From Squalus acanthias (taxonomy: Eukaryota): a DNA stretch of 64,000 nucleotides. Made by a program: the position numbers and the translations under genes. The notes below the pieces were generated by a model, which made no database searches, had not been told where the DNA came from, and was given only the letters and a program-made list of their open reading frames with translations. Location of the stretch: NCBI GenBank assembly GCA_030390025.1, contig CM059425.1:43462001-43526000 (forward strand). Reading direction: 5' to 3'. This document shows positions 1-53,538 of the stretch, piece by piece; the first letter of the stretch is position 1; every line of letters starts with the position of its first letter.

Positions 1-583
1 AATTTGAGGAGGACACTCCATAATCCCTCACGGTTGACAGTGTCGAAGGCCTTTGTGAGATCAAAGAAGACCATGTACAGCGGTTGGTGCTGTTCCCTGC
101 ATTTCTCTTGTAATTGTCGTGCGGTGCAGATCATGTCCATTGTGCCCCTTAGTGGGCGGAATCCGCATTGCGACTCTGGGAGGAGCTCTTCAGCCACTGG
201 GAGAAAGCGATTGAGGAGGATTCTTGCGATGACTTTCCCTGTGGCAGACAGCAGGGAAACTCCTCTGTAATTACCGCAATCGGACTTGTCACCTTTCTTG
301 AAGATGGTCACAATTACGGTGTCTCTGAGGTCCCCTGGCATACTCTCCTCCTTCCAGATAAGAGAAATGAGTTCATGAATTCACGCCAGTAGTGTTTCTC
401 TGCCATGCTTTAGTGCCTCGGCGGGGATTCCATCTGCTCCTGAGGCCTTGTTGTTCTTCAGTTGTCGAATGGCCTTTTCAACCTCATGCCGAGCTGGGGT
501 TGTGCTGAGATGGTGGCGGGTAGCATGCTGTGGGATGGAGTTGAGGACACTCGCGTCGAAGACAGAGTCTCGGTTAAGGAGAT
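1..583 (-). mobile_element. RTE-clade LINE, reverse transcriptase (RT) N-terminal part; continues beyond window start and is split by the Gypsy insertion
   Basis: Minus strand reads LNRDSVFD..KASGADGIPAE..KKGDKSDCGNYRGVSLLS..ESQCGFRPLRGTMD..FFDLTKAFDTV with one in-frame stop; joins WKEHFEDL at about 5020-5045 once the LTR element is removed. Confidence 0.93.
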
Positions 584-777
584 TGTGGTAACACAATACA
601 GCTTTCTGTGACTCGAACTTTATTGCATCACTTCCTGTGATTAGTCCAGGATAAATACTGGACTGATCAGTTGGATCCTGGAGAGGCATAGAGTAAGACC
701 TCTTTTGTATGTAGCACCTTTTTAGTTGATTAAAGCTTACTTTAAGTTCACCACGCGTAAGGCTCATTCTTACGACA
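584..777 (+). repeat. 5' LTR (194 bp)
   Basis: tgtggtaa...ttacgaca, imperfect terminal inverted repeat; matches 4823-5016 except one T/C. Confidence 0.97.
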
Positions 778-778
778 A

Positions 779-789
779 TTTAATCAACT
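779..789 (+). promoter_or_regulatory. Atypical primer-binding site, complementary to LTR 724-734 (candidate self-priming)
   Basis: tttaatcaact is the exact reverse complement of agttgattaaa; no TGG-initiated tRNA PBS follows the LTR. Confidence 0.6.
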
Positions 790-855
790 TTGAAAAACTT
801 CGCACTCAAACTTTTTGGACGAACTCGGAACTAAGGATCCAGGGAATCACCCATC

Positions 856-1764
856 ATGGAAAACATCCTTAAACCATCGCGTCTTGACTTGGACCCAAAC
901 ACCCCAGCAGCCGGTAAGGTGTGGAAACACTGGTATCGCACGTTTGACAATTTTCTCGAATATTGCAAGGCTGATGATGACTCAAAGTTGCGGATACTCA
1001 TCAACTGTGTCACCCCCAATGTATTTCAGTATGTCGAGGAATGGGGCAGTTACGAGGAGGCAATTCGGACGCTTAAAAGACTATATACTAAGACACCGAA
1101 TGAGGTCTATGCCAGACATCTACTAGCTACAGCCCAACAAGGGCCGGAGGAATCCATTGATAAATTCCTCCAAGAGCTTCGCAGACTTAGTATGGACTGT
1201 AACTTTCAGGCGGCCTCAGCTGAGCTGTACCGTGAAGAAATGATCCGTGATGCTTTCATCTGCGGGCTTGCCTCCCCATTTATACGCCAGCGTCTACTGG
1301 AAAGTAAGACACTTGAGCTTCAGAGAGCTTATGACATGGCTTGCTCTCTAGATCTGGCAAAAAGAAATGCAGACCTTTATACAGTGCCCAGACCTCGGTC
1401 TGCTGCCTTAACTACAGTCAGGCAATTTAAGAGGCCACAGGTGAACTCTATTAGGGAGGACTTTATCCCTGACGATCAATCTGATGACTTCACTGATGAA
1501 GAGGATGATGACCCCACTGTGGCAGCCTCTTGGCAATCTAAGAAATGCTTCTTTTGTGGTGATGAGTTTCACCCTCGGAAATTCTGCCCTGCTCGCAATG
1601 CGTTTTGCAGTCATTGCAACAAAAAGGGTCATTTTGCAAAGGTTTGCCTATCAAGAGCCTCTACGAGGGCTTATCAAGCTAAGTCCTACCGAACTGCCCC
1701 GGTAAGGGCCTATCAAGATGTTCCGGCTAAAATCTATCGTGCTTCCTCTCGGGTTTTCTCTTGA
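856..1764 (+). CDS. gag: Gypsy gag with tandem zinc knuckles
   Basis: 302 aa ORF containing CFFCGDEFHPRKFC and CSHCNKKGHFAKVC. Confidence 0.9.
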   Translation: MENILKPSRLDLDPNTPAAGKVWKHWYRTFDNFLEYCKADDDSKLRILINCVTPNVFQYVEEWGSYEEAIRTLKRLYTKTPNEVYARHLLATAQQGPEESIDKFLQELRRLSMDCNFQAASAELYREEMIRDAFICGLASPFIRQRLLESKTLELQRAYDMACSLDLAKRNADLYTVPRPRSAALTTVRQFKRPQVNSIREDFIPDDQSDDFTDEEDDDPTVAASWQSKKCFFCGDEFHPRKFCPARNAFCSHCNKKGHFAKVCLSRASTRAYQAKSYRTAPVRAYQDVPAKIYRASSRVFS

Positions 1765-4700
1765 AGAAACACACCTAGAGTTTCAGCCACTCTTTGTGCA
1801 ACGACACCAATTACAGCTGCTTGTCCTCAGAACCTATTCCATGCAGCTACAAAAGCATCAATTAATGGACATACTTTAGATGCCTTAATTGACTCAGGTA
1901 GCACTGATAGTTTCATTAGGGAACAGATTGTTGCAGAGTTAAAGCTACATGTTTTCCCATCGGACCAGGCAATTGCGATGGCTCAGTCATCACTTAATAC
2001 CAGAATTTCAGGCTTCTGTATGGTTGAAATAACACTTAATGGTCACAGGTATCCCTCCACCCGGCTTTCGGTGCTCAAGGACTTATGTAGTGATCTTATC
2101 TTAGGGCTGGATTTTCAAAAGCAGCATAAGAAGCTCACCATTGAGTTCGGCGGATCCAAACCTGAACTCACTATTTCTAATATACGACCTCGATTACCGT
2201 TCTGTGCATTGTCAGCAGCTTCACTGGATGAACCCTCACTGTTTACCAGTATCCCTCCTCGATGCAAACCGATTATAACAAAGTCACGACGTTTCAGTCA
2301 GGAAGACCAGTCTTTTATTGCGGCTGAGATTTCTCGGCTTTTAGCAGAGGATATCATCGAGCCTTGTTCGTCGCCATGGCGCGCCCAGGTCGTTATTGTT
2401 AAGAACCCTCTACAACCTCACAAGAAACGGCTGTGCATTGACTATTCACAGACCATCAATCAATATACGGACTTGGACGCATACCCATTGCCGCGCATCG
2501 ATGATATGGTTAATAAACTGGCTGAGTACACGGTGTTCTCAACATATGATCTGAAAAGTGCCTATCATCAGGTACCCTTGAAGGTCTCAGACAAGCAGTA
2601 TACGGCCTTTGAAGCCAATGGACGGCTGTATCAATTTCGTCGCCTCCTCTTTGGGGTCACTAATGGAGTGGCTGTCTTCCAGCGAGCAATGGATGACCTG
2701 GTCAAACAGGAAGACTTGAAGGATACGTTTCCTTATCTGGACAATATTACTGTCGCAGGTCGCAATCAGCGGGAACATGACGCCAATCTCCAACGATTTT
2801 GGGATGCACTCCAGCACCGTAATTTGACATTAAATGCGGCTAAATCCATTGAGTCACAACCAACCATCAACATCCTTGGCTATTGTGTGGGCAATGGCAT
2901 CATTAAACCTGACCCTGAAAGGCTTCGCCCACTCCAAGAACTCCCGCCACCTAAAAATCCGGCCTCCTTGCGCCGGGCCCTCGGCCTGTTTGCATACTAT
3001 GCTAAATGGATTCCTAACTTCTCGGACCGAATCCAACCTCTACTGAAGGCCAGCACATTCCACTAGACACAGCGGCTGTTGCAGCCTTTAACCTCCTGAA
3101 AAAACAGTTGGAGAAAGCGGCTCTTCACTCCATCGATGAGAGTCTTCCTTTTGTTGTGGAGTGTGATGCCTCGGAGGTGGCGATCTCGGCCACTCTGAAT
3201 CAGGAAGGTCGTCCGGTGGCATTTTTGTCCAGGACTTTTCAAGGGGCTGAGCTACATTATCCTCCAGTCGAGAAAGAAGCTACAGCCATCATAGAGGCAG
3301 TACGGAAGTGGACTCATCTCCTAGCTCGCCAGCACTTTACCTTAATCACGGACCAGCGATCGGTCGCCTTCATGCTCGATAATCGAAAACGGACCAAAAT
3401 TAAAAATAATAAAATCCAGCTTCGGCGGCTGGAATTGGCCTCTTTTGGTTACACCATCCACTATCGACCTGGCAAGGAGAATGTGGCTCCGGATACCCTC
3501 ACACGAGCATTCTGCTCCGCCATGGCACCCTCTACGCTCGTAGACATCCATGATGGGTTGTGTCATCCGGGCGTTACTCGCATGCTACACTTCATGCGGT
3601 CCCGAAATCTCCCATTCTCTACCGGGGATGTAAAGAAGATGTGCTCGGACTGCAGAGTCTGTGCGGAATTGAAACCTCAGTTTTTCCGCCCCTCGGGTGG
3701 TATACTCATACATGCGACCCAGCCAATGCAACGGCTTAGCATCAATTTTAAGGGGCCGTTGCCCTCTTCAACTCGCAACACTTATCTATTGACCATGGTT
3801 GATGAGTATTCCCGTTTTCCGTTTGCCTTTCCCTGCCCCAATATGCTGACGACCACGGTTATCAGCTGCCTTGAGCAGGTATTTGCTTTCTGTGGCATGG
3901 CATCCTATGTTCATTTGGATCGGGGCCCTTCTTTTATGTCAGGAAAACTCAAGGCCTATCTCTCGGAACGGGGTATTGCTGCCAGCAGAACGACGCCTTA
4001 TTATCCGGTCGGGAATGGGCAAGTCGAGCGTTTTAACGCTATCATCTGGAATGCGGTACGTCTGGCTTTGAGATCTCGGGGCCTACCCAACCAGCAATGG
4101 GAAGCAGTACTTCCAGACGCATTACACTCCACACGGTCCCTCCTTTCGACCGCCACAAATACGACGCCTCATGAACGGTTCTTCCGATTTCAGCGTCGCT
4201 CATCCTATGGGATATCTCTCCCGTCGTGGCTGACTGCACCGGGACCAGTGCTACTCCGAAGATATGTCTAAGAATGACCCCCTGGTAGATGAGGTTGAGC
4301 TCACTGACGTCAACCCTACCTACGCCTATATTCGGTATCCTGACGGTCGGGAATCTACCGTGTCATTGCGGGATCTGGCTCCCTGCCCGCCGAAACATAG
4401 AGGGAAACCAGGGGATGATATTGTACCAGGCACATCTCTGGGCTCGCCAGGTGCCTCTCATCACGATCTGGATCTGACGCCGGCTGGTACCTCACTCCAG
4501 CGTGCCGACCTGGGGCAGACTGACAATGAGCCCGTCGGGGCTCGCACGCGCAGCCACGATCCACCCCGTACCATACGCTCGGAAACGGATCTGCCACAGC
4601 CCTGCCCGACACCCGTTCGGGCACCAGTACACAGTCAGGATCGTCCTGACCCCTCACAGAGCGGGCTGGATCACTCAGACTCTGGTCCACGGCCCGCGGC

Positions 4701-4803
4701 GGGTAAACGGGCTAGGGGCCCTCTACCGCTACGAGAACCCAAACGGGTGCGGCTCTCCCTCGTCCGGCGGCTACGAAATGGAGGGAGCATCCCGGCCTCC
4801 TAA
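1765..4803 (+). pseudogene. pol: Gypsy pol (protease, RT, RNase H, integrase), frameshifted
   Basis: In frame after the gag TGA: LIDSGSTDSF; RT SPWRAQVV, CIDY, DLKSAYHQ, YLDNI; RNase H VECDAS, EKEA, ITDQRS; integrase HDGLCH..CRVC, HLDRG, NGQVER. Frameshifts near 3060 and 4265. Confidence 0.92.
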
Positions 4804-4809
4804 TCTTTT

Positions 4810-4822
4810 GGGGGGGGGAGAA
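4810..4822 (+). promoter_or_regulatory. Polypurine tract
   Basis: G-run plus agaa immediately upstream of the 3' LTR. Confidence 0.9.
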
Positions 4823-5016
4823 TGTGGTAACACAATACAGCTTCCTGTGACTCGAACTTTATTGCATCACTTCCTGTGATTAGTCCAGGATAAATACTGG
4901 ACTGATCAGTTGGATCCTGGAGAGGCATAGAGTAAGACCTCTTTTGTATGTAGCACCTTTTTAGTTGATTAAAGCTTACTTTAAGTTCACCACGCGTAAG
5001 GCTCATTCTTACGACA
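4823..5016 (+). repeat. 3' LTR (194 bp)
   Basis: Direct repeat of 584-777, followed by the GAGAT TSD. Confidence 0.97.
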
Positions 5017-6349
5017 GAGATCTTCGAAGTGCTCCTTCCAGCGGGCACTGACTGCCTCTCTGTCCTTAATGAGCACCTCTCCGTTCTTGGCCCGCAGTGG
5101 GGTAGGGCCTTGGGTGCTTGGGCTGTAGGCGGTCTTGACTGCGCTAAAGAATCCACGCACGTCATGGTTGTCGGCTAGCTGCTGGATCTCCTGCGCTTTC
5201 TCCACCCACCATCTGTTCTTTAGGTCGCGAGTTTTTTGTTGGACCTCGGCCTTCAGGCGTCTGTAGAGCTGCTTTCTTGCTCTCGAGTTCTGTTGCTGTT
5301 TCCAGATCAGGAATGCCTTGCGCTTGCGACTTATTAGCCCTTGGATCTCCTGGTCGTTCTCGTCGAACCAGTCTTGGTGTTTTCTGATCGAGTGACCGAA
5401 CGTCTCTTCACAGGTGCTGATTATGGAGGCCTTGAGTGCAGACCAGGCGCTGTGGGCACTCTGTGTCTCTGCATCACTGGGAGTCGTCAGGTTGTTTGTG
5501 AGGCGCAGGCTGAATAGAGCCTTCTTAGCGGGGTCTTTGAGTGCTCTAGCGTTAATTTTCCTGTGGCATTGTTTCTGTTGCCACCGCTGTTTTGGGGCTA
5601 CATTGATGGAGATGACAGAGCGGATTAGGCGGTGGTCTGTCCAGCAGTCGTCAGCTCCTGTCATGGCGCGGGTGATGCGACGTCCTTGCGGTCCTTCGCT
5701 CGGACGATGACGTAGTCCAGCAGATGCCAGTGCTTGGAGCGAGGGTACTGCCATGAAGCCTTGTACTTGTCTCTCTGACGGAACAAGATGTTGGTTATGA
5801 CAAGGCCATGTTCTAAGCATTTCGACAGGAGGAGGGTACTGTTGGAGTTGGCTTTCCCTACCCCCTCTTTGCCGATCACACCTCCCCAGAGGTCTGTGTC
5901 CTTTCCAACTCTGGCGTTAAAGTCGCCAAGGAGGATCAGCTTGTCGCCCGTTGGGACTCGGGACAGGGATTGTTCGAGGCTGGAGTAGAATTCCTCTTTG
6001 GTCTCATCTGTGGCTTCCAGTGTTGGGGCGTATGCACTGATGACCGTAGCGCACTTGTTCCGGGTTAGGGTGAGCCGAAGAGTCATGAGGCGCTCGTTTA
6101 TACCGCTAGGAGAGTCTCTGAGATGCCCAACTAGTTCATTTTTTATGGCGAAGCCTACCCATGGAGGCGGCGTTCTTCTTCAGGTTTGCCTTTCCAGAAG
6201 AAGGTGTAGCCACCGCCTTGCTCCTTGAGCTGGCCTTCCCCTGCCCGCCGGGTCTCACTTAGGGCGGCGATGTCAATGTCGAAACGTCTGAGCTCCCGGG
6301 CAACGATAGCAGTGTGGCGTTCCGGTCTGTCACTGTTGGGGTTGTCCAA
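5017..6349 (-). mobile_element. RTE-clade LINE, APE endonuclease and linker, frameshifted
   Basis: DIAALSETR, YTFFWKG, ISAYAPT, LILLGDFNARVG, HWHLLDYVIVR, CWTDHRLI across ORFs 6155-6355, 5661-6086 and 4987-5820. Confidence 0.93.
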
Positions 6350-11765: not shown

Positions 11766-12606
11766 CTTCTTGCTAACGTCTGTTCTGAAAAATGTTACTC
11801 AAGATTTTATAAAATGCACACTTTACCATTCAATGTAGAGCTTGATTATTATAATTTTTGCTGATAATGCCGTTACAATATAAAATCCATACTAATCCTA
11901 GTTCATACATCAAACTTTAATTTAACATTAGTCCAACATTTTTGATTAAAAACTCAGGAATTAAAAATCATTGATTGGCAAATAGACAGCGACCCCCTCC
12001 CCTTAACTGTATGTTACACGGTTTCAAAATTTAACATATTACATCCTAAATAAGACTGCAATAATGTGAAAGGATTTATAATTTATCACATTTGTTCTGG
12101 AAACCAATAGCCTATATTAGTCTTGACATTCTGTGACCTATAGCTGGGTTGGAATTTAATAACAACTGGCCTTGGGCATGCTGTGGTATGAAACAGGTCC
12201 CATTGCTGAAATCTGCCACTAGATTATCCAACAAATCAGACTGTTAATCTATGATTCCTACAATCTGTGACCTTTGAACTGCTCAGTATATGTGGGAGAA
12301 GTCTGAAAACAAAAACGTATTGCTTTTTGTATTAAAAATGCATAAGTCACAAATTACCATGGCAGCAAGACCACCCAATAGCAAGAGATTGTCACTGTAC
12401 AATACTTCTCCTTCATTTTGCTATTTTGATAAGAACAGAAAACTTTTATCACTTCATGGCTGCTTTATTCCTCCTTCCTGTTATTTAAATTTAAACCACA
12501 ATTTTCTTGAGTTCCTACTGGCATTTGTAGGAAACAGATTGAGCCATTTTACTCAGCCTGCCCTCATCTCTTACTCATATCACTCTCATGGCCCCGATTT
12601 TAACTC

Positions 12607-12832
12607 AGGGTGAGTGGGAAGTGTGGGCCAGGCAGGGTGAGTGGGGAGTGTGGGCCAGGCAGGGTGAGTGGGGAGTGTGGGCCAGGCAGGGTGAGTGGGG
12701 AGTGTGGGCCAGGCAGGGTGAGTGGGGTGTGTGGGCCAGGCAGGGTGAGTGGGGAGTGTGTGCCAGGCAGGGTGAGTGGGGAGTGTGGGCCAGGCAGGGT
12801 GAGTGGGGAGTGTGGGCCAGGCAGGGTGAGTG
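12607..12832 (+). repeat. 27-bp G-rich minisatellite, about 8 copies, inside a probable MITE (about 12591-13160)
   Basis: Unit cagggtgagtggggagtgtgggccagg; TIR-like ggccccgatttt just upstream. Confidence 0.95.
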
Positions 12833-14189
12833 GCAAGCTTACCCAAGTTCGCCAACACAAGGCCTGTGCCATTTTAGACCCCCCCCCCGGTATTATTTAA
12901 ATATACCCACTCCTTCCCGCCTGTGATTCTGGATTACTGCTGGTTCCCCACTTCCACCCTTCTCTGATTCCATATTACTGCTGGTTCCCCATTCCCTCCT
13001 CATTCTGGGTTACTAGTTCCTCACTCCCACCCTCCTCCGATTCCATATTTTTCCTGTTTGCCCACACCTTCCCTGTGCCAATGACATGAGGCTGGTGGGC
13101 GGGAGTCAGTGAGCATGGCAGGATTTACATTGAAATCAGTGGAAATAAAAATCGAGTGCTTTCTATAATAGGTGGCCGAAATATACCTCCATGTCTCAAA
13201 GCTAATATAACATATGAAAGCAAACAATATGGCGTCTGCCCGGTTTGGTGTCCCCACCATTCTAATCAATATTCTAAATAGTTTTAAATGTTAGTTCAAC
13301 AAAAAAATGCTTCACCTCTGGGAGTTAACCCTTTGTAAGCTGAACCCAACCTTCATACTAATATCATAACATGCATTAAAACAAAATCCCTTCCAGGCTG
13401 TAGGTAAAAGTCCCAAAATGCTACAGGGCTAAAGCTTTACTGAATAAAATATTGAATAATTTACAGATCCAGCTCAGCTGAAAGCAAACTGACATCTCCA
13501 TAGAGCCAGTCTGGTACTGGTCTTGGCCACTTTCTAAGCCATGTGAACAGATACCGAAAAGGCCTGAACTGAATCCAAATGATTAAAATGCCAGTAAAAG
13601 CATTGAAACAGTAAAATTTGTAAGTGGAACTTTTCCACATATGCAATAATAGCCATCAGCTGCTTTTAGAGATGATTAGTGAGCGTTTACTGCCAGGTGG
13701 TGTTGTCAATACACTTCAAATATGTATGAAGTTTTCTTTGGCCATCTCATATTTTTGAAGCCAATTTTAAAAATGTGGTTTTCTGTGTGTTTAATGTCAT
13801 TCTGCACTGTATTGAAATATTGATTTTCAAACACATAAAGCTCTTAGATTTGCAGCAGTAAGCATTGTACCTTTGCTATGTGGTGACAAAGTATGATTAG
13901 CATGTTTCCAAAGCACATAATGGCTGCTGTCTGTAAGTGGGAAACATCTATTTTGAAATTGCTCTTTACATAAAGGTGAAATACAAAAAATGAATTTGTT
14001 TCAAGTGCTATTGATCTGTGTATATTAAACATGTTGTTTGGAGCCTGATTCCTGTAGCGTCAAGTTCAATAATAATAACTGTACTAAATAATATGGTGTA
14101 ATAGCCAATTAGTCCAATACACATTTACAGTTGGACCGCACGTGCAAAGAGTTCTTTTGTGGTCACAATAAAACACTTTAGGAAATAAT

Positions 14190-17400: not shown

Positions 17401-18258
17401 ATGAGTTCCCAGCAACACGGCAATTGCACAAATAGAAGGCCATAGGTCAGGTTGGGAATGACAGCGCAGCCATTACAGGGCAGAAACCTGGCCAAAATGG
17501 GTCCTGCCCAGAAGACAACCACATAATTGCTGGTGCACTTATTTGACACCAGAAATTCACCAAACACGGTGAGTAAATTCAGGGCCAGTGTGTCTTAACA
17601 ATTGATATATAACACCAATTAATTTGAGCAAAAATGTTTGACAGTTAATTTGTAAGATCCTTTCTGGCAGAATCCCAAGTGTTAAAATGAATACATCTGG
17701 TTTCTGTCGACATATCTCAACAATATCAAGTGGACATTTATGTGCAACTTTTATCAATATTTTGCTATGTTGAGCTGTGCCCTGTTCCTAGTGTTTTAAT
17801 AGTGCTTTTAATAGTGCACACTGAATATGAAATCAATGTCATCTTGTGATGCTAAAAAGATCCAATATCCTGTTTGTGTGAAAGCCTTCTATAGCAGCTT
17901 ATCTAATGATATCAAGAGACCACGTGATCAAAAATTCACTAACACTGAATTGAAGCTGCCAAAATACTTAATAGTTGAGCTGCAGATTCAACTAGTATGT
18001 TATTCCATATTGTACTCGGAGAACATCAAACCTCTGTATTTTTATTTATCAAGTTTATGCTTTACTATTGCTGTACCGAATAGTAATTACTGTAACCAAC
18101 GTTTAACCCTTTCTATATATTGTTAGCTGGTTCTCCACAATAGCAGTAGTCTGCAGCACAGTGCATTGGGGGGAACCAGCTCATCGTGCCACAAAGTGGT
18201 AGGATGCAGGCTCTCACCGGCCATTCTACTCACAATGAGTTTTCAATCCAGACGGGGC

Positions 18259-18838
18259 TACTGGTAGAAGGTGGCAGGCAGAGCAGACACTGGTAGAAGG
18301 TGGAAGGCAGGGCAGACACTGGTAGAAGGTGGCAGGTGGAGTAGACACTGGTAGAAGGTGGCAGGAGGAGTAGACACTGGTAGAAGGTGGCAGGCAGGGC
18401 AGACACTGGTAGAAGGTGGCAGGCAGGGCAGACACTGGTAGAAGGTGGCAGGCAGGGCAGACACTGGTAGAAGGTGGCAGGAGGAGCAGACACTGGTAGA
18501 AGTTGGCAGGTGGAGTAGACACTGGTAGAAGGTGGCAGGAGGAGCAGACACTGGTAGAAGGTGGCAGGAGGAGCAGACACTGGTAGAAGGTGGCAGGAGG
18601 AGCAGACACTGGTAGAAGGTGGCAGGAGGAGCAGACACTGGCAGAAGGTGGCAGGAGGAGCAGACACTGGCAGAAGGTGGCAGGCGGAGCAGACACTGGT
18701 AGAAGGTGGCAGGAGGAGCAGACACTGGTAGAAGGTGGCAGGAGGAGCAGACACTGGTAGAAGGTGGCAGGCAGGGCAGACACTGGTAGAAGGTGGCAGG
18801 CAGAGTAGACACTGGTAGAAGGTGGCAGGTGGGGCTGA
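18259..18838 (+). repeat. 29-bp minisatellite, about 20 copies
   Basis: Unit gacactggtagaaggtggcaggaggagca with cagggca / tggagta variants. Confidence 0.97.
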
Positions 18839-18888
18839 CACGAAGTGAGATAGCCACCTGCTTGCCTTCATGGTTGATGGGTGATATA

Positions 18889-19209
18889 GAAGAAAGAAAG
18901 ACTTGCATTTATATAGCACCTTTCACGACCTCAGGCCATCCCAAAGTGCTTTACAGCCAATGAAGTACTTTTTGAAGTGTAGTCACTGTTGTAATTTTGG
19001 AAATGAGGCAGCCAAATTGTGTATTGCAAGGTCCCACAAACAGCAATGTGATAATGACCAGATCATCTGTTTTTTAGTGATGTTGGTTGAGGGATAAATA
19101 TTGGCCAGGAATCTGGGGATAACTCCCCTGCTCTTCTTTGAATAGTGCCATTGGATCTTTTACGTCACCTGAGAGGGCAGACTGTGCCTCCATTTAACGT
19201 CTCATCCAT
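18889..19209 (-). mobile_element. DeuSINE, 5' truncated
   Basis: Reverse complement of the 7700-7950 region plus tail. Confidence 0.85.
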
Positions 19210-27505: not shown

Positions 27506-29469
27506 AAAGGAAAGGGGTTAAGATGTAAGGATGCACTTCCCTGATAACACTATATGGTTATTGCAATGGTCTCTGCTATTTTCGCAGCACCCAGTTGATA
27601 ATTCATTGCATTGAAATTTAAAATGTAATTCAGAGACCAAACTATCACTTAATGGTTTGCAGCAGACCAGTTTGTAAACTGTCTTTCAACTTCATCCAAA
27701 ACAGTGTCCTGTGGAATAAAATTGAAAGGAAGGGTACTGCTAAAGTGAGACCTAGTGAGCATCGCCAAAAGTGCCTTGTTCCTCTCATTGTCCTCTCACA
27801 ATACTTCACATGCAGGTTTATAGTCTGGGTCCCATGCTTGTCATATAAGTGTGACACAAACATGCCCAGTGTGGCCCTCCCTTGTTGGAAAAAAAACTGC
27901 TAATGCTGTTACTAAGTGAATCCCAGTCCAATGAAGATGTGTTACCGTTATTTTTTAATTCATGGGGAAGACCTTCATCCGTCACATTTTGATAGAAAAA
28001 GCTGCTACCTCACTAGTACCTATAAGCGTGCAAAACTGCAAAGCAGGTGACACTTGACTGCTGCAATTAAACTGTCATCTTATTTGACCAAATGATTTTT
28101 TTTTAAATTGACAATATGACAAGGCTGAGATAACCAAAGAAAGAGTCATATTAAGGTTTGGCTTTAGTTTCGTAAGCAAGTAAAAGCAAAACTGCATGGT
28201 CTCTATGCTGAAACAAAACCTCTAACAGAAATAGCTTAACAAAAGAATTTGCCAAAGAAAATGCAGACCTAAAAGTAACAGCAGCTGAGGAAATCGCTGA
28301 AAATGTTGGTCTCTTTTAAATAATTGTAATATTGGCTGTGGAAGGGGAAACAGAGAAACATTATTGTATTTCCAGTGGCAGCTTTTCTGAAGGCATTGTG
28401 CCTAATCCTATAAACTGACCTTCACACAGAGGAAACGCCCGGTAAGAAGATTCTATTAATAGTTCTGTTTTCTTGACTTCTAAGCAATAAATAGTGGGAA
28501 TTTTGATTATCGGGAACAGCCATCTTGTCTGCGTAAAAGTAATGCATTCTAATAATATGGTGTATTGTTTAAAATTGGTGGAGGGGAGAAAGGTGTTGGG
28601 ATTCACCAAGTGATTAAAATATGCCCATAAGCAATGCTATAAAAGGATAATAAAATCTAAATCTCATTTGTTCCACTTCAGTTTCTTCATATGCATAAAA
28701 CTCCATAAAAACAGCATCTGTGTTCAAATAATGAGCTGAAAAGACACTGCACAGTTGCTAATTCGATTTACATTCTTAAACTCATTGTACCATATACTTC
28801 CATTCACTAGATATCTGGGCCAATATAATGCTTCAGAAGTAAAAGGGAATTAAAAAAGGAGCTATTTAGTTACTATAATGAGATTGGTAAGCAGATTGAC
28901 AGTATAGTGAGCTGTCAAGTGTACTCTGATATTGTCCAACCACCTGGATTGTTGCTGTCTTTCCAATTTATCACAATTCTGTGGAACAAAATCTTATTTT
29001 GCTGTGTTGCTGATATGGGTCTTATCAGTTTGCCTGAGAGGACTTCTATCTCATATACAATTTCTGACAAGCCAGATATAAAACACAGAGATAACTCCTA
29101 CTGAATGAATGACTGCAAAAGGTACTTATAGTAAGAAGAAAGGAAAGCTACAGCAATATGTTAGGGGTCATTAATTTTGGCATCATTTTCGCAGGAGAGC
29201 AAAGAGTATATACTGGGGTGGAATGGTTAGTGTTCCATCTGCACCTTTTTTTTACAAAGGGGATGCATATCAGAAGGCAGCTACTGTAAAACAATCATGT
29301 GCACATGCTTTAAACTCACCAATTGTGAAGGCATGAGTAAATTATAGGTTATTTTCTGCCATTCCATAACTGCCCCACTGTCGATATCAGACATTGTGAT
29401 TTTTTAGTATTTTAAAACATTAAAAAAAATGAAAGAGTTTTATGTGAGAAAGAGAGGTGTTGCTATATG

Positions 29470-30043
29470 ATCCATTGGATATTAGTATGGGCAATTGGAT
29501 ATCAGAGCAGTTCAATAGATATCTGTATGGGCAATTGATATCAGAGCAGTTCAATAGATATCAGTATGGGCAATTGAATATCAGAGCAGTTCAATGGATA
29601 TCTGTATGGGCAATTGGATATCAGAGCAGTTCAAGGGATATCTGTATGGGCAATTGGATATCAGAGCATTTCAAAGGATATCTGTATGGGCAATTGGATA
29701 TCAGAGCAGTTCAATAGATATCAGTATGGGCAATTGGATATCAGAGCAGTTCAATAGATATCAGTATGGGCAATTGAATATCAGAGCAGTTCAATAGATA
29801 TCAGTATGGGCAATTGGATATCAGAGCAGTTCAATAGATATCAGTATGGGCAATTGGATATCAGAGCAGTTCAATGGATATCAGTATGGGCAATTGGATA
29901 TCAGAGCAGTTCAATGGATATCAGTATGGGCAATTGGATATCAGAGCAGTTCAATGGATATCAGTATGGGCAATTGAATATCAGAGCAGTTCAATGGATA
30001 TCAGTATGGGCAATTGGATATCAGAGCAGTTCAAAGGATATCT
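29470..30043 (+). repeat. 40-bp minisatellite (two 20-bp GATATC subunits), about 14 copies
   Basis: Unit ggatatcagtatgggcaattggatatcagagcagttcaat; degenerate units resume at 30871-30940. Confidence 0.97.
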
Positions 30044-30044
30044 G

Positions 30045-30863
30045 AAATAAAAACAGAAAATACTGCAAACACTCATCAGGTCAGGCAACATCTGTGGAGA
30101 GAGGAACAGAGTTAACGGGCTGGATTTTCATTGACCCGTGGAGGCGGGTTTGGAGGCGTGTGGGGGGTTAAAATTGCGAAAACTGGCGGGCGGGCACAAG
30201 TCCGCCTCCATCCCGCCTCCATGCAATTTTCATTAAATCGTGTCTGCTGGTCCCGACTCCGTCCCGCCTTTAAGAGGCGGGATAGGTTGTTAAGGCCCTT
30301 AACAAGCACTAAATTGGCTCTATAATGCCATTTTGAAAGGCCTTTGTGATTTTAACCCTTGATCTACGTGAAGCATGCCAGTTCTGAACCACGATTGTGA
30401 AACCTGGCGGGAGCACATTTGGATAGCTGACTATCAGCTGCAGGTCCACTAATACAACAGAGATGTGATGAAGGTAGTAGTATTAGGTCTGAAAGTCGCC
30501 TCTGATGCTGCTGCATTGAAGGTCTTCAGAGACTGCCTGGCCTTTGCTGTGAGAGGACCTGGATGCAAAAAAAACCTCTCGCTCTTTCTCTCTCCTCTCA
30601 CAGCAAAGGCCAGGCAGTCTCTGACCTGCAATGCAGCAGCAATGATGACATCATCAGAGGTGACTTTCAGACTGAAAACACTAATTAGGTCATGGGTTCC
30701 CACATGCTGGAACTCAATTGCCCAATTAGGTGAAAATCGCATCAATCTCCCACATCCAATTGCAGTCGGGTGGATAACACGAAATGCGGATGACACGACC
30801 CCAACCCGCCCCAGTATCAAAATCCAGCCCAAAATTTCAGGTCGATGACCTTTCATCAGAACT
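30045..30863 (-). mobile_element. Penelope-like terminal fragment with hammerhead motif, split by a MITE
   Basis: 30045-30116 plus 30831-30863; minus strand agtt-ctgatga-aaggtc-atc-gacct-gaaa; related pieces at about 33015-33125, 43995-44125, 49130-49185, 50642-50760 and 57735-57815. Confidence 0.7.
30117..30830. mobile_element. Palindromic Harbinger-type MITE
   Basis: Perfect TIR gggctggatttt / aaaatccagccc; internal inverted repeats; second copy at 42081-42890. Confidence 0.9.
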
Positions 30864-51940: not shown

Positions 51941-53328
51941 TTAACTGTGAAAAATCATCTTACTGGCCCTCAGTGTCCACGATTCAGTCCTCACCTCCCA
52001 GTCACAAATGTTCTTCCAGCAAGACTCTTTTGCCCAGCTCAGGGTGTTGCATCCAACTGTAGCACTCCCACTGACAGCCAACTGAAATCATCACAGATCA
52101 CTAACTGGACATCCCAGGTCAACTAGAGCAACTATCGAGGTGATCTTTATTTGTAGATACCAGCCCCGATAATCTGCAATGGGCTATTGAGGTGCCTCTT
52201 AGTCTAACCGCCAAGAGCCACCTGCTGGGAACCTCCGACACTGATCATGGGGGATCTTGCTGGATTAGGGGGAGGTGCCCTGATTTGCTTCCCAACGGCG
52301 GGCACCTCACTAGGAGGGCATCTGGGGCACCTGGTTGTTGGCGAGTATGCCTGGTCTGACTTGTGCTTAGACTGCTGGGTAGCAAAATTTCACTAAGTCG
52401 CTACTGTTCTGCTCGAGAGTTGTGATTTTGTTTAGCATTTATTTTTTTGTAGGGGTCCGAGGCTCTACCCGCCCCAAACATGGCAATTGTGGTAAGGGGG
52501 CGGGGCAGGGACGGGGACTTCCTACATCGGGAGTTCCTGTGCCCTGGGCTTTTGGAGGGGCCAGCTGTATAGTCAGCAGAGGCACACCTAATACCAACAA
52601 GCTGCAGTGTGGAGATCATGATCCTGCCTCTGGCCCCTGAGGAAAAAGTTCAATTTTATCTTAATTTTAAAATCACAAAGGGTACCCGATACGTCCCACC
52701 CCACTCAGGCTATCTTCACACAGGGTGGGTGCCCCAGATGTTCTAGTGTCACAGACGATCGCCATTGGGACACGAATCAGGGGACCTCCTGCTGACCTCA
52801 GAAAGTCCATCAGGATCAGCGGCAGAAGTTCCCAGTGGTGCATCTCGACAGTTATGTCCTATTGCAGACTCTGCCCTTTAAAAAAGATTCCGAATTATAA
52901 AATATGTGCATTGTTGTTAAAATCGGGCATTCTGGGAGATATTATTATCCAATTATCCATTTATTAAGACGAGATATGGTTACGTTATTAGTTTTGTGAT
53001 TAGTACCTGGTGTTTTATGATCATGAAACTGATAAAATCATCTACCAAGGACCTTTTTTAGAAAAGACACAGGCTAAATATTTGTGGGGAGAGTACGGGG
53101 GAGGATGAAAATGGCTGGAGAAGCCGGCAAGGTGGGGTATGAGGAGGTCCTGCTGAACTTAACGGCAGGATCTCATTATCACTTTTCTTGATCCGTTTCC
53201 CACTCGGCAACTGGCCAAATTGACAGCATAGCCGGCGACTGGGAGGGAACACTAGCGGCTGGTGTCCGCAGCCTGGGACCCTTGGGGACGGTCCCCGGCT
53301 TGGAGGGGAGGTCGGCAATCGGCAGGTA

Positions 53329-53538
53329 GGAGAGAGAGACCGCGAATGGGCGGGGGGAGAGAGAGGCCGCGAATGGGTGGAGGGAGAGAGAGGCCGCGAA
53401 TGGGCAGGGGGGAGAGAGAGGCCGCGAATGGGCAGGGGGGAGAGAGAGGCCGTGAATGGGCAGGGGGGAGGGAGAGGCCGCGAATGGGCAGGGGGGAGGG
53501 AGAGGCCGCGAATGGGCGGGGGGAGAGAGAGGCTGCGA
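53329..53538 (+). repeat. 27-28 bp GC-rich minisatellite, about 7 copies
   Basis: Unit gagagagaggccgcgaatgggcaggggg. Confidence 0.93.

Follow-up and report, generated by a model that had tools for sequence, protein, structure and literature searches.

Covariation between LTR and primer-binding site suggests self-primed reverse transcription in an animal clade of Gypsy retrotransposons

How does an LTR retrotransposon begin minus-strand synthesis if no tRNA-type primer-binding site (PBS) follows its 5' LTR? The question is raised by a Gypsy element in the 64,000-nucleotide stretch of Squalus acanthias DNA analysed here (the window). A preliminary description of this DNA had suggested that the element primes with a piece of its own transcript, that self-priming may therefore occur in a Gypsy branch other than the chromoviruses, and that masking of the poly(A) signal in the 5' LTR could be an alternative function of the same pairing. 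In Tf1, the first 11 transcript bases pair with the PBS and RNase H cuts between bases 11 and 12 (excerpt of PMC7175516). We compared the window element with its relatives in the host genome and in metagenomes.

The element and its arm:PBS pairing

The element is a young insertion at window positions 584-5016, with 194-bp LTRs that differ from each other at one position and a 5-bp target site duplication (TSD). The TG..CA ends of the LTRs, the TSD, the polypurine tract (PPT) and the order PR-RT-RH-IN identify it as a Ty3/Gypsy LTR retrotransposon; the full domain order is gag-PR-RT-RH-IN. The gag-pol of the window copy is broken three times, by a stop at 1762-1764 and by frame changes at ~3020-3066 and ~4265. 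The insertion host is a LINE-like element on the minus strand (window 1-578 and 5022-6330) with remains of an endonuclease and an RT, which we take to be RTE-like. In the 3.7-Gb host genome, RT identity is 99-100% in the best 150 matches, and an anchored-pattern search recovered at least 1679 near-identical 5'-LTR/PBS junctions, which marks the family as young and abundant. A DNA search with the LTR, in which common words were skipped, gave at least 12 matches. Elsewhere in the window there are minisatellite arrays at 12579-12875, 18144-18955, 29418-30177 and 53305-53538, with units of 27, 29, 40 and ~28 bp.

Table 1. Features of the window copy and its flanks
Feature	Position in window	Strand	Remark
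Left TSD, GAGAT	579..583	+	
5' LTR, TG...CA, 194 bp	584..777	+	boundaries identical in sister copies
TATA-like box GATAAATA	650..657	+	74 nt upstream of the arm; putative function
Candidate self-primer arm AGTTGATTAAA, 5' strand of P1	724..734	+	initiator-like A at its start; ATTAAA (729-734) at its end
P2 hairpin, 735-739 with 743-747	735..747	+	directly 3' of the arm; putative role
One-base spacer between LTR end and PBS	778	+	A in 20 of 21 family representatives
Putative PBS TTTAATCAACT, complement of the arm, without TGG	779..789	+	
gag-pol remains: double-knuckle gag, protease, RT, RNase H, integrase; no chromodomain	856..4803	+	
RT catalytic motif YLDN, not YxDD	2734..2745	+	
PPT	4810..4822	+	
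3' LTR	4823..5016	+	arm copy at 4963-4973
Right TSD, GAGAT	5017..5021	+	

As the preliminary description had stated, the 5' LTR is not followed by a TGG-type PBS. One base past the terminal CA of the LTR there begins instead an 11-mer that is the exact reverse complement of the arm inside the LTR, and the TTAGTT context at the start of the arm and the ATTAAA hexamer at its end are also found as described. The pairing stops at exactly 11 nt, with no extension at T723/T790 or at G735/A778. In dinucleotide shuffles of the LTR, a match of at least 11 nt to the sequence beginning 0-4 nt past the LTR end arose 13 times in 20,000. Only 44 nt separate the 5' arm from the PBS, and the predicted pairing probability of the middle pairs is at least 0.97 for eight fold start points at 680-725 and ~0.6 in a longer fold begun at 726. 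Among the first 100 listed family copies, counted by eye, none shows a change in the arm and three show one in the PBS. There is no PBS behind the arm copy of the 3' LTR, so the ATTAAA at that end would be free and might be used as a poly(A) signal.

Conservation and anatomy of the paired region

A metagenome scan led to 80 fetched loci, of which 38 were testable and 42 had no detectable gag start with upstream DNA. A perfect stem of at least 9 nt is present in 30 of the 38 testable loci, and in 29 of these 30 it lies in the register of the window; L079 and L080 are a single insertion. The eight loci without such a stem include L122, where the stem is mismatched, L136, where the PBS is kept and the arm is lost, and several 5'-truncated copies. 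From the stem-positive loci, 23 representatives were picked and 21 were used, forming 12 groups at 75% RT identity. The two left out, L121 and L124, were anchored elsewhere by the script; L124 has the normal register with one mismatch. The 21 family representatives have RTs that are 50-100% identical and share one register, with 11/11 pairs in 19 of them and 10/11 in two, and carry 18 distinct arm sequences. None has TGG in its PBS. In nine families the LTR end is fixed independently by the 3' LTR copy, and here the pairing is 11/11 in eight and 10/11 in one.

The check proposed earlier, for covariation between the two 11-mers, came out clearly positive in comparisons of distant families. In 20 of the 21 families all four of the variable arm positions 4-7 are paired; when arms and PBSs are combined between families, this holds for 8.6% of the pairings. 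L078 differs from four sister copies by a compensated change: both of its LTRs show G>T, and its PBS shows C>A. Compensated changes also distinguish other close kin (L066/L067, L167/L194 and L099/L119). The host genome holds two further families with RTs ~80% identical and different LTRs, and the arm:PBS pair is kept in both. Uncompensated variants also exist, among them the three PBS changes mentioned above and L071, in which the arm is changed in both LTRs and the PBS is not. A search for double changes at arm position 5 returned none in families A or B, the family being too young, and only a third family. L166 and L182, which share a mismatched PBS, were considered as counter-evidence and dropped: their shared U5 change is confined to the 5' LTR, which means that this stretch has not been passed on by retrotransposition. 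A K02A2.6/Mag-type family of the same genome (L144/L145, two copies) served as a control; it has a TGG PBS, TGGCGACGAGG, at the LTR end and no long self-match. The arm:PBS feature is genuine and extends across the clade.

The stem is constant at its inner end, where the arm closes in AAA, (G/A)C(C/T/G) comes next and the PBS begins one base after CA, while its outer end varies between families, as would be expected for the 3' end of a primer. Of the 21 families, 17 have A at arm position 1 and 20 have G at position 2, with a pyrimidine ahead in 15. This initiator-like context (YAGTY) is conserved at exactly 11 nt, which is the primer length of Tf1 (excerpt of PMC7175516). Arm positions 6-11 read ATTAAA or AATAAA in 13 families; the hexamer is non-canonical in the other 8 of 21, and the pairing is still present there. 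In 16/21 families the stem continues at least 2 nt upstream of the AG (13% by cross-pairing), an extension that would not be expected from a strict start at the A, and in several families it reaches to 1-7 nt from the gag ATG. We abandoned a reading of the T-rich AG as a splice acceptor, since this AG is itself part of the pairing with the PBS.

A second helix, the P2 hairpin, begins exactly at nt 12. Its summed length over the families, which are not fully independent, is 90 against 61±5 in shuffles, and none of 2000 shuffles reached it. P2 abuts the arm:PBS helix, so the predicted cut 734|735 falls at a helix-helix junction, where stacking of P2 on P1 is predicted. The second helix of the clade is thus a local hairpin, as opposed to the pretzel of PBS-adjacent duplexes of the Tf1/sushi chromoviruses (excerpt of PMC10085805). 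No leader duplex of the Tf1-pretzel kind was detected in the families, with leader-to-loop stems of 4.62 nt against 4.66 nt in shuffles; the 3'-adjacent duplex is the one that was tested formally.

The start site of transcription can be read in two ways. The TATA-like box of the window copy implies a start near 680, as against the initiator-like A724. TATA boxes lie 74-92 nt upstream of the arm in three host-genome families (74 in the window family, -89 and -92 in the other two), and most other families have no TATA box at -25 to -30. A start near 680 is the case that the preliminary description had named as refuting its proposal; it would alter the length of the primer, and not necessarily self-priming. 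One raw RNA run contributed no reads to this stretch, and RNA runs present as contigs only displayed no start, end or poly(A) tail, which speaks neither for nor against either start. From the sequence signals, a start exactly at A724 appears possible and somewhat short of probable.

Placement of the clade

The element had been described as Mag-like, with a double-knuckle gag and no chromodomain. Neither a chromodomain nor a Tf2-type SH3 was found in the four ORF pieces of the window or in 40 clade proteins (39 full-length proteins and the protease-RT piece of the window), and a chromodomain was detected in the controls L259 and L260. The double zinc knuckle is present in the window gag and in 17/21 clade gags, against 19/20 K02A2.6/Mag-type gags. 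In gag profile alignments the clade aligns with Mag over 241 columns (E 2.5e-36) and with chromoviruses over only 59. We take the comparison group to be Mag from its K02A2.6-like names, its knuckle and its TGG PBS, and the labels CsRn1-like and Mdg3-like are likewise our assignments from motifs. Judged by the chromodomain and pretzel tests, the element falls outside the Tf1/sushi group.

In an RT-RH-IN tree (29 rows, 633 columns) the clade forms a long-stemmed group (100/100) that is sister to the K02A2.6/Mag-type rows (83/82), with the chromodomain-bearing rows separate (100/99). The outgroups of this tree were gathered here, and the named elements Mag, SURL, Gulliver, Tf1 and sushi are not among its rows. 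With RT-RH alone the deep order does not resolve. With modest support, the tree bears out the Mag-like placement as a sister position, and an AU test does not reject the clade and the chromoviruses as sisters (p 0.135). A position of the clade beside Mag-like elements, and not among the chromoviruses, is modestly supported by the gag homology and the tree. The clade shares with Mag/K02A2.6-like elements a homologous gag, the double knuckle, short LTRs, a length of ~4-4.5 kb and a 5-bp TSD. It differs from them in its RT (identity ~33-35%, on a long stem branch) and in lacking the tRNA-Leu or tRNA-Ser PBSs reported for Mag-like elements (excerpt of PMC3286476).

The RTs also differ in their catalytic motif, which is YxDN or FLDN in 85 of the 106 motif-readable clade proteins (of 120) and YxDD in all 108 motif-readable K02A2.6/Mag-type proteins (of 120). 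The equivalent residue of Ty1 is reportedly D211, and its change to asparagine is said to block transposition. The Ty1 D211N (Asp-to-Asn) enzyme retains in vitro polymerase activity (excerpt of PMC2148107). The clade RT is mostly of the YxDN/FLDN type, yet the window family is very young and abundant.

Named relatives occur in a soft coral, a sea anemone, shrimps, a stomatopod, a copepod, a mussel and a catshark. Scans of IMG/VR returned no clade members, the ESM Atlas returned only generic RT and K02A2.6-like clusters, and the nearest RT in the PDB is that of Ty3. Matches to SH3_Tf2-1 and Integrase_H2C2 were discarded, being ERV-like or Mag-type or without an RT match. A search of the host genome for sushi-type gag gave no match, and its control was likewise silent. 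The host genome also contains many ERV-like RTs with a VQYVDD motif (L146-L163), which were used as outgroups only, and a Gypsy element in a region with tRNA genes (L243:1-3607, G000:C13:8180001-8183607), presumably CsRn1-like from its gag motif.

Proposed self-priming and its alternatives

To our knowledge, self-priming has been demonstrated experimentally only for the yeast element Tf1. It has been described for Tf1/sushi, Tcn1 and Copia TAR elements, and can be predicted from a complement of at least 10 nt starting 0-5 nt past the LTR (excerpt of PMC6317226). The Copia TAR elements (Houba, Osr-1) and the moss Tcn1 are such predictions, and the same rule selects the window element (excerpt of PMC6317226); those elements belong to another superfamily or to the chromoviruses, and their hosts are plants. 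With Tf1/Tf2 of Schizosaccharomyces pombe, Tj1, Tosmo and the Tf1/sushi group, the clade shares a PBS complementary to the LTR instead of to a tRNA, and the 11-nt register. Besides the differences in domains, gag and RT motif given above, the clade is set apart from Tf1/sushi by the poly(A)-like hexamer in its arm.

Self-priming in some form is highly probable for the clade. The proposal that it occurs in another Gypsy branch is supported by the covariation, by the missing chromodomain, by a gag homologous along its length to that of Mag-type elements and by fold-back copies (below) that fit a self-derived primer. We favour, as reasonably likely, a Tf1-like form in which the element's own 5' arm is the minus-strand primer and is cut at 734|735. 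Transcription would start at or upstream of A724. The 5' arm would fold onto the PBS over a loop of 31-66 nt, which would also hide the 5' ATTAAA. The RT/RNase H of the element would then cut at 734|735, where the conserved P2 adjoins the arm:PBS helix, and release a 3' end lying one base away from that of the LTR. Strong-stop DNA would end at 735 and jump to the 3' R, and plus-strand synthesis would copy the retained primer and so regenerate the PBS. About half of Tf1 cDNA retains a copy of the PBS at its 3' end (excerpt of PMC11042837). Occasional longer primers would explain the pairing that extends 2-7 nt past the AG in most families.

Rare family copies may carry footprints of this process. 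Searching for copies with a base other than T directly after the PBS, we found six. Three of them (L185, L187 and L190) go into reverse-complemented U3 directly after PBS base 11; of the others, two are T>A point changes, each adding a further base to the pairing, and the last is a deletion. The reversed U3 of L185 is 45 nt long and ends at window position 679, 29 nt past the TATA-like box, and that of L187 is 106 nt long. L190 (G000:C20:53246182) is palindromic and consists of the LTR, the A spacer, the PBS and U3 at full length in reverse orientation, so that the insertion has U3 ends at both sides; its insertion flanks are G-rich and near-matching. A search for junctions at 735 returned one point variant. 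Four small TRIM-like elements (L191, L193, L202 and L205) have deleted LTRs of ~60 bp without promoter and arm, each with a 5-bp TSD. In four elements, both LTRs are deleted between AGCTT repeats, one of 9 direct repeats of at least 5 nt in the LTR; the arm is gone and the right junction falls at 734-738. Each of these four LTR-deleted elements is flanked by a clean 5-bp TSD and carries internal deletions; the fold-backs L185 and L187 are two of them. L185 and L187 have no arm in their own LTRs, so their U3 copy derives from a different molecule or from the RNA's 3' LTR. The deletion junctions and the fold-backs fit a plus strand that stops inside the PBS and strong-stop DNA that ends at 735, and show that an arm sequence with U3 attached, supplied by a different molecule or by the RNA's 3' end, can act as template. 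The footprints favour self-priming without deciding which arm primes normally.

The primer could then also be the 3'-LTR arm of the same or a co-packaged RNA, cut at TAAA|GC with U3 attached, with R comprising little beyond the arm. Such a primer would account for pairing upstream of the AG in 16/21 families, for the whole reversed U3 of L190 with a U3 end on either side, and for the 106 nt of reversed U3 in L187. If the skipped U3 RNA stayed attached to the primer, an excess of fold-backs would be expected in arm-less elements, and fold-backs are in fact found in two of the four arm-less deleted-LTR elements, against one full-LTR element beside 1679 normal junctions. Fold-backs are rare, however, and could equally be produced by a PBS-ended plus strand annealing to any arm-bearing template, be it leftover 3'-LTR RNA or, for L190, its own strand. 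The proximity of the 5' arm to the PBS and its high folding probability also speak against a 3'-LTR primer, as do the junctions at 734-738, which fit strong-stop DNA ending at 735 as a 5' cut predicts, and the exactly 11 nt that pair in the window family. We regard priming by the 3' arm as rather unlikely.

The helix could alternatively be a switch only, hiding the poly(A) signal of the 5' LTR and perhaps the leader while another primer is used. The poly(A)-like hexamers in 13/21 families, a geometry that hides the signal at the 5' LTR only, and stems approaching the gag ATG agree with this. Masking, however, does not need a stem that starts exactly one base past the LTR end; the priming site sets that end, the adjacent bases leave other primers no room, and pairing persists where the hexamer is non-canonical. 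A switch without priming is therefore very unlikely, and the masking proposed earlier as an alternative holds up as a plausible second function and not as the sole one. Priming at 778-795 by a tRNA or tRNA half of the host, or by some other host RNA, with the LTR match being secondary, might be suggested by an identical 11-mer in 4/21 representatives of different sources. This is extremely unlikely: in the absence of TGG no mature CCA end is able to pair, and there are 18 distinct PBS sequences, each following its own LTR. Against 40 distinct sampled tRNA sequences, among which ARAGORN recognised only 6 types and the tRNA of the Mag control was absent, the best match of the PBS is 7 nt. For a chance inverted repeat one could point to the AT-rich sequence and to a single-copy p of ~6.5e-4, which is uncorrected for a genome-wide search, but the same register and the compensated changes across distant families refute chance, leaving it a negligible probability.

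It is likely, as far as sequence comparison can tell, that the clade uses a variant of the known Tf1-type mechanism in a lineage beside Mag. A more far-reaching view is that the clade gained tRNA-free priming independently of Tf1/sushi and works differently, as a widespread non-chromoviral lineage of marine animals in which a three-way RNA junction marks the cut after the poly(A) hexamer, a single helix acts in priming and as poly(A) switch alike, the 3' LTR or a second RNA supplies the primer with U3 attached, and the last catalytic aspartate of the RT is naturally asparagine; this combination appears doubtful. In the literature searched, outside Repbase, subscription journals and bioRxiv supplements, we found no animal Gypsy clade outside the chromoviruses for which self-priming is reported, and Gypsy self-priming was described for chromoviruses only (further sources, in excerpt: PMC4600332, PMC5341516, PMC6934838 and PMC12471100). 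Gypsy clades A/B/C and MolGy have been described (excerpt of PMC6238403), and a motif search in the accessible part of the supplements of PMC6238403 and PMC8556966 gave no match.

If the proposed priming is correct, there is alongside the tRNA-primed Mag elements a large animal lineage that likewise does without tRNA, using a different RNA architecture. This would bear on whether hairpin priming is ancestral or was gained repeatedly in LTR elements, as discussed in PMC3601003 (excerpt), and would predict immunity to defences based on tRNA fragments. The arm:PBS rule explains why PBS searches would come back empty for such elements and offers a simple rule for their annotation. Because the window family is young and abundant, with at least 1679 junctions, its start sites, cut sites and primer remnants should be readable from host tissue.

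Two further observations concern the structure of family copies. L191 and L202, and by their length also L046, L053, L055, L058 and L059, carry a ~39-bp copy of the LTR start with a purine run ahead of it, just upstream of the PPT; in this subfamily the copy may be a second start of plus-strand synthesis. At L198 (G000:C1:562000-575100) copies are arranged head to tail with shared LTRs at a spacing of 4247 bp, which recalls the integrase-independent tandem insertion of Tf1.
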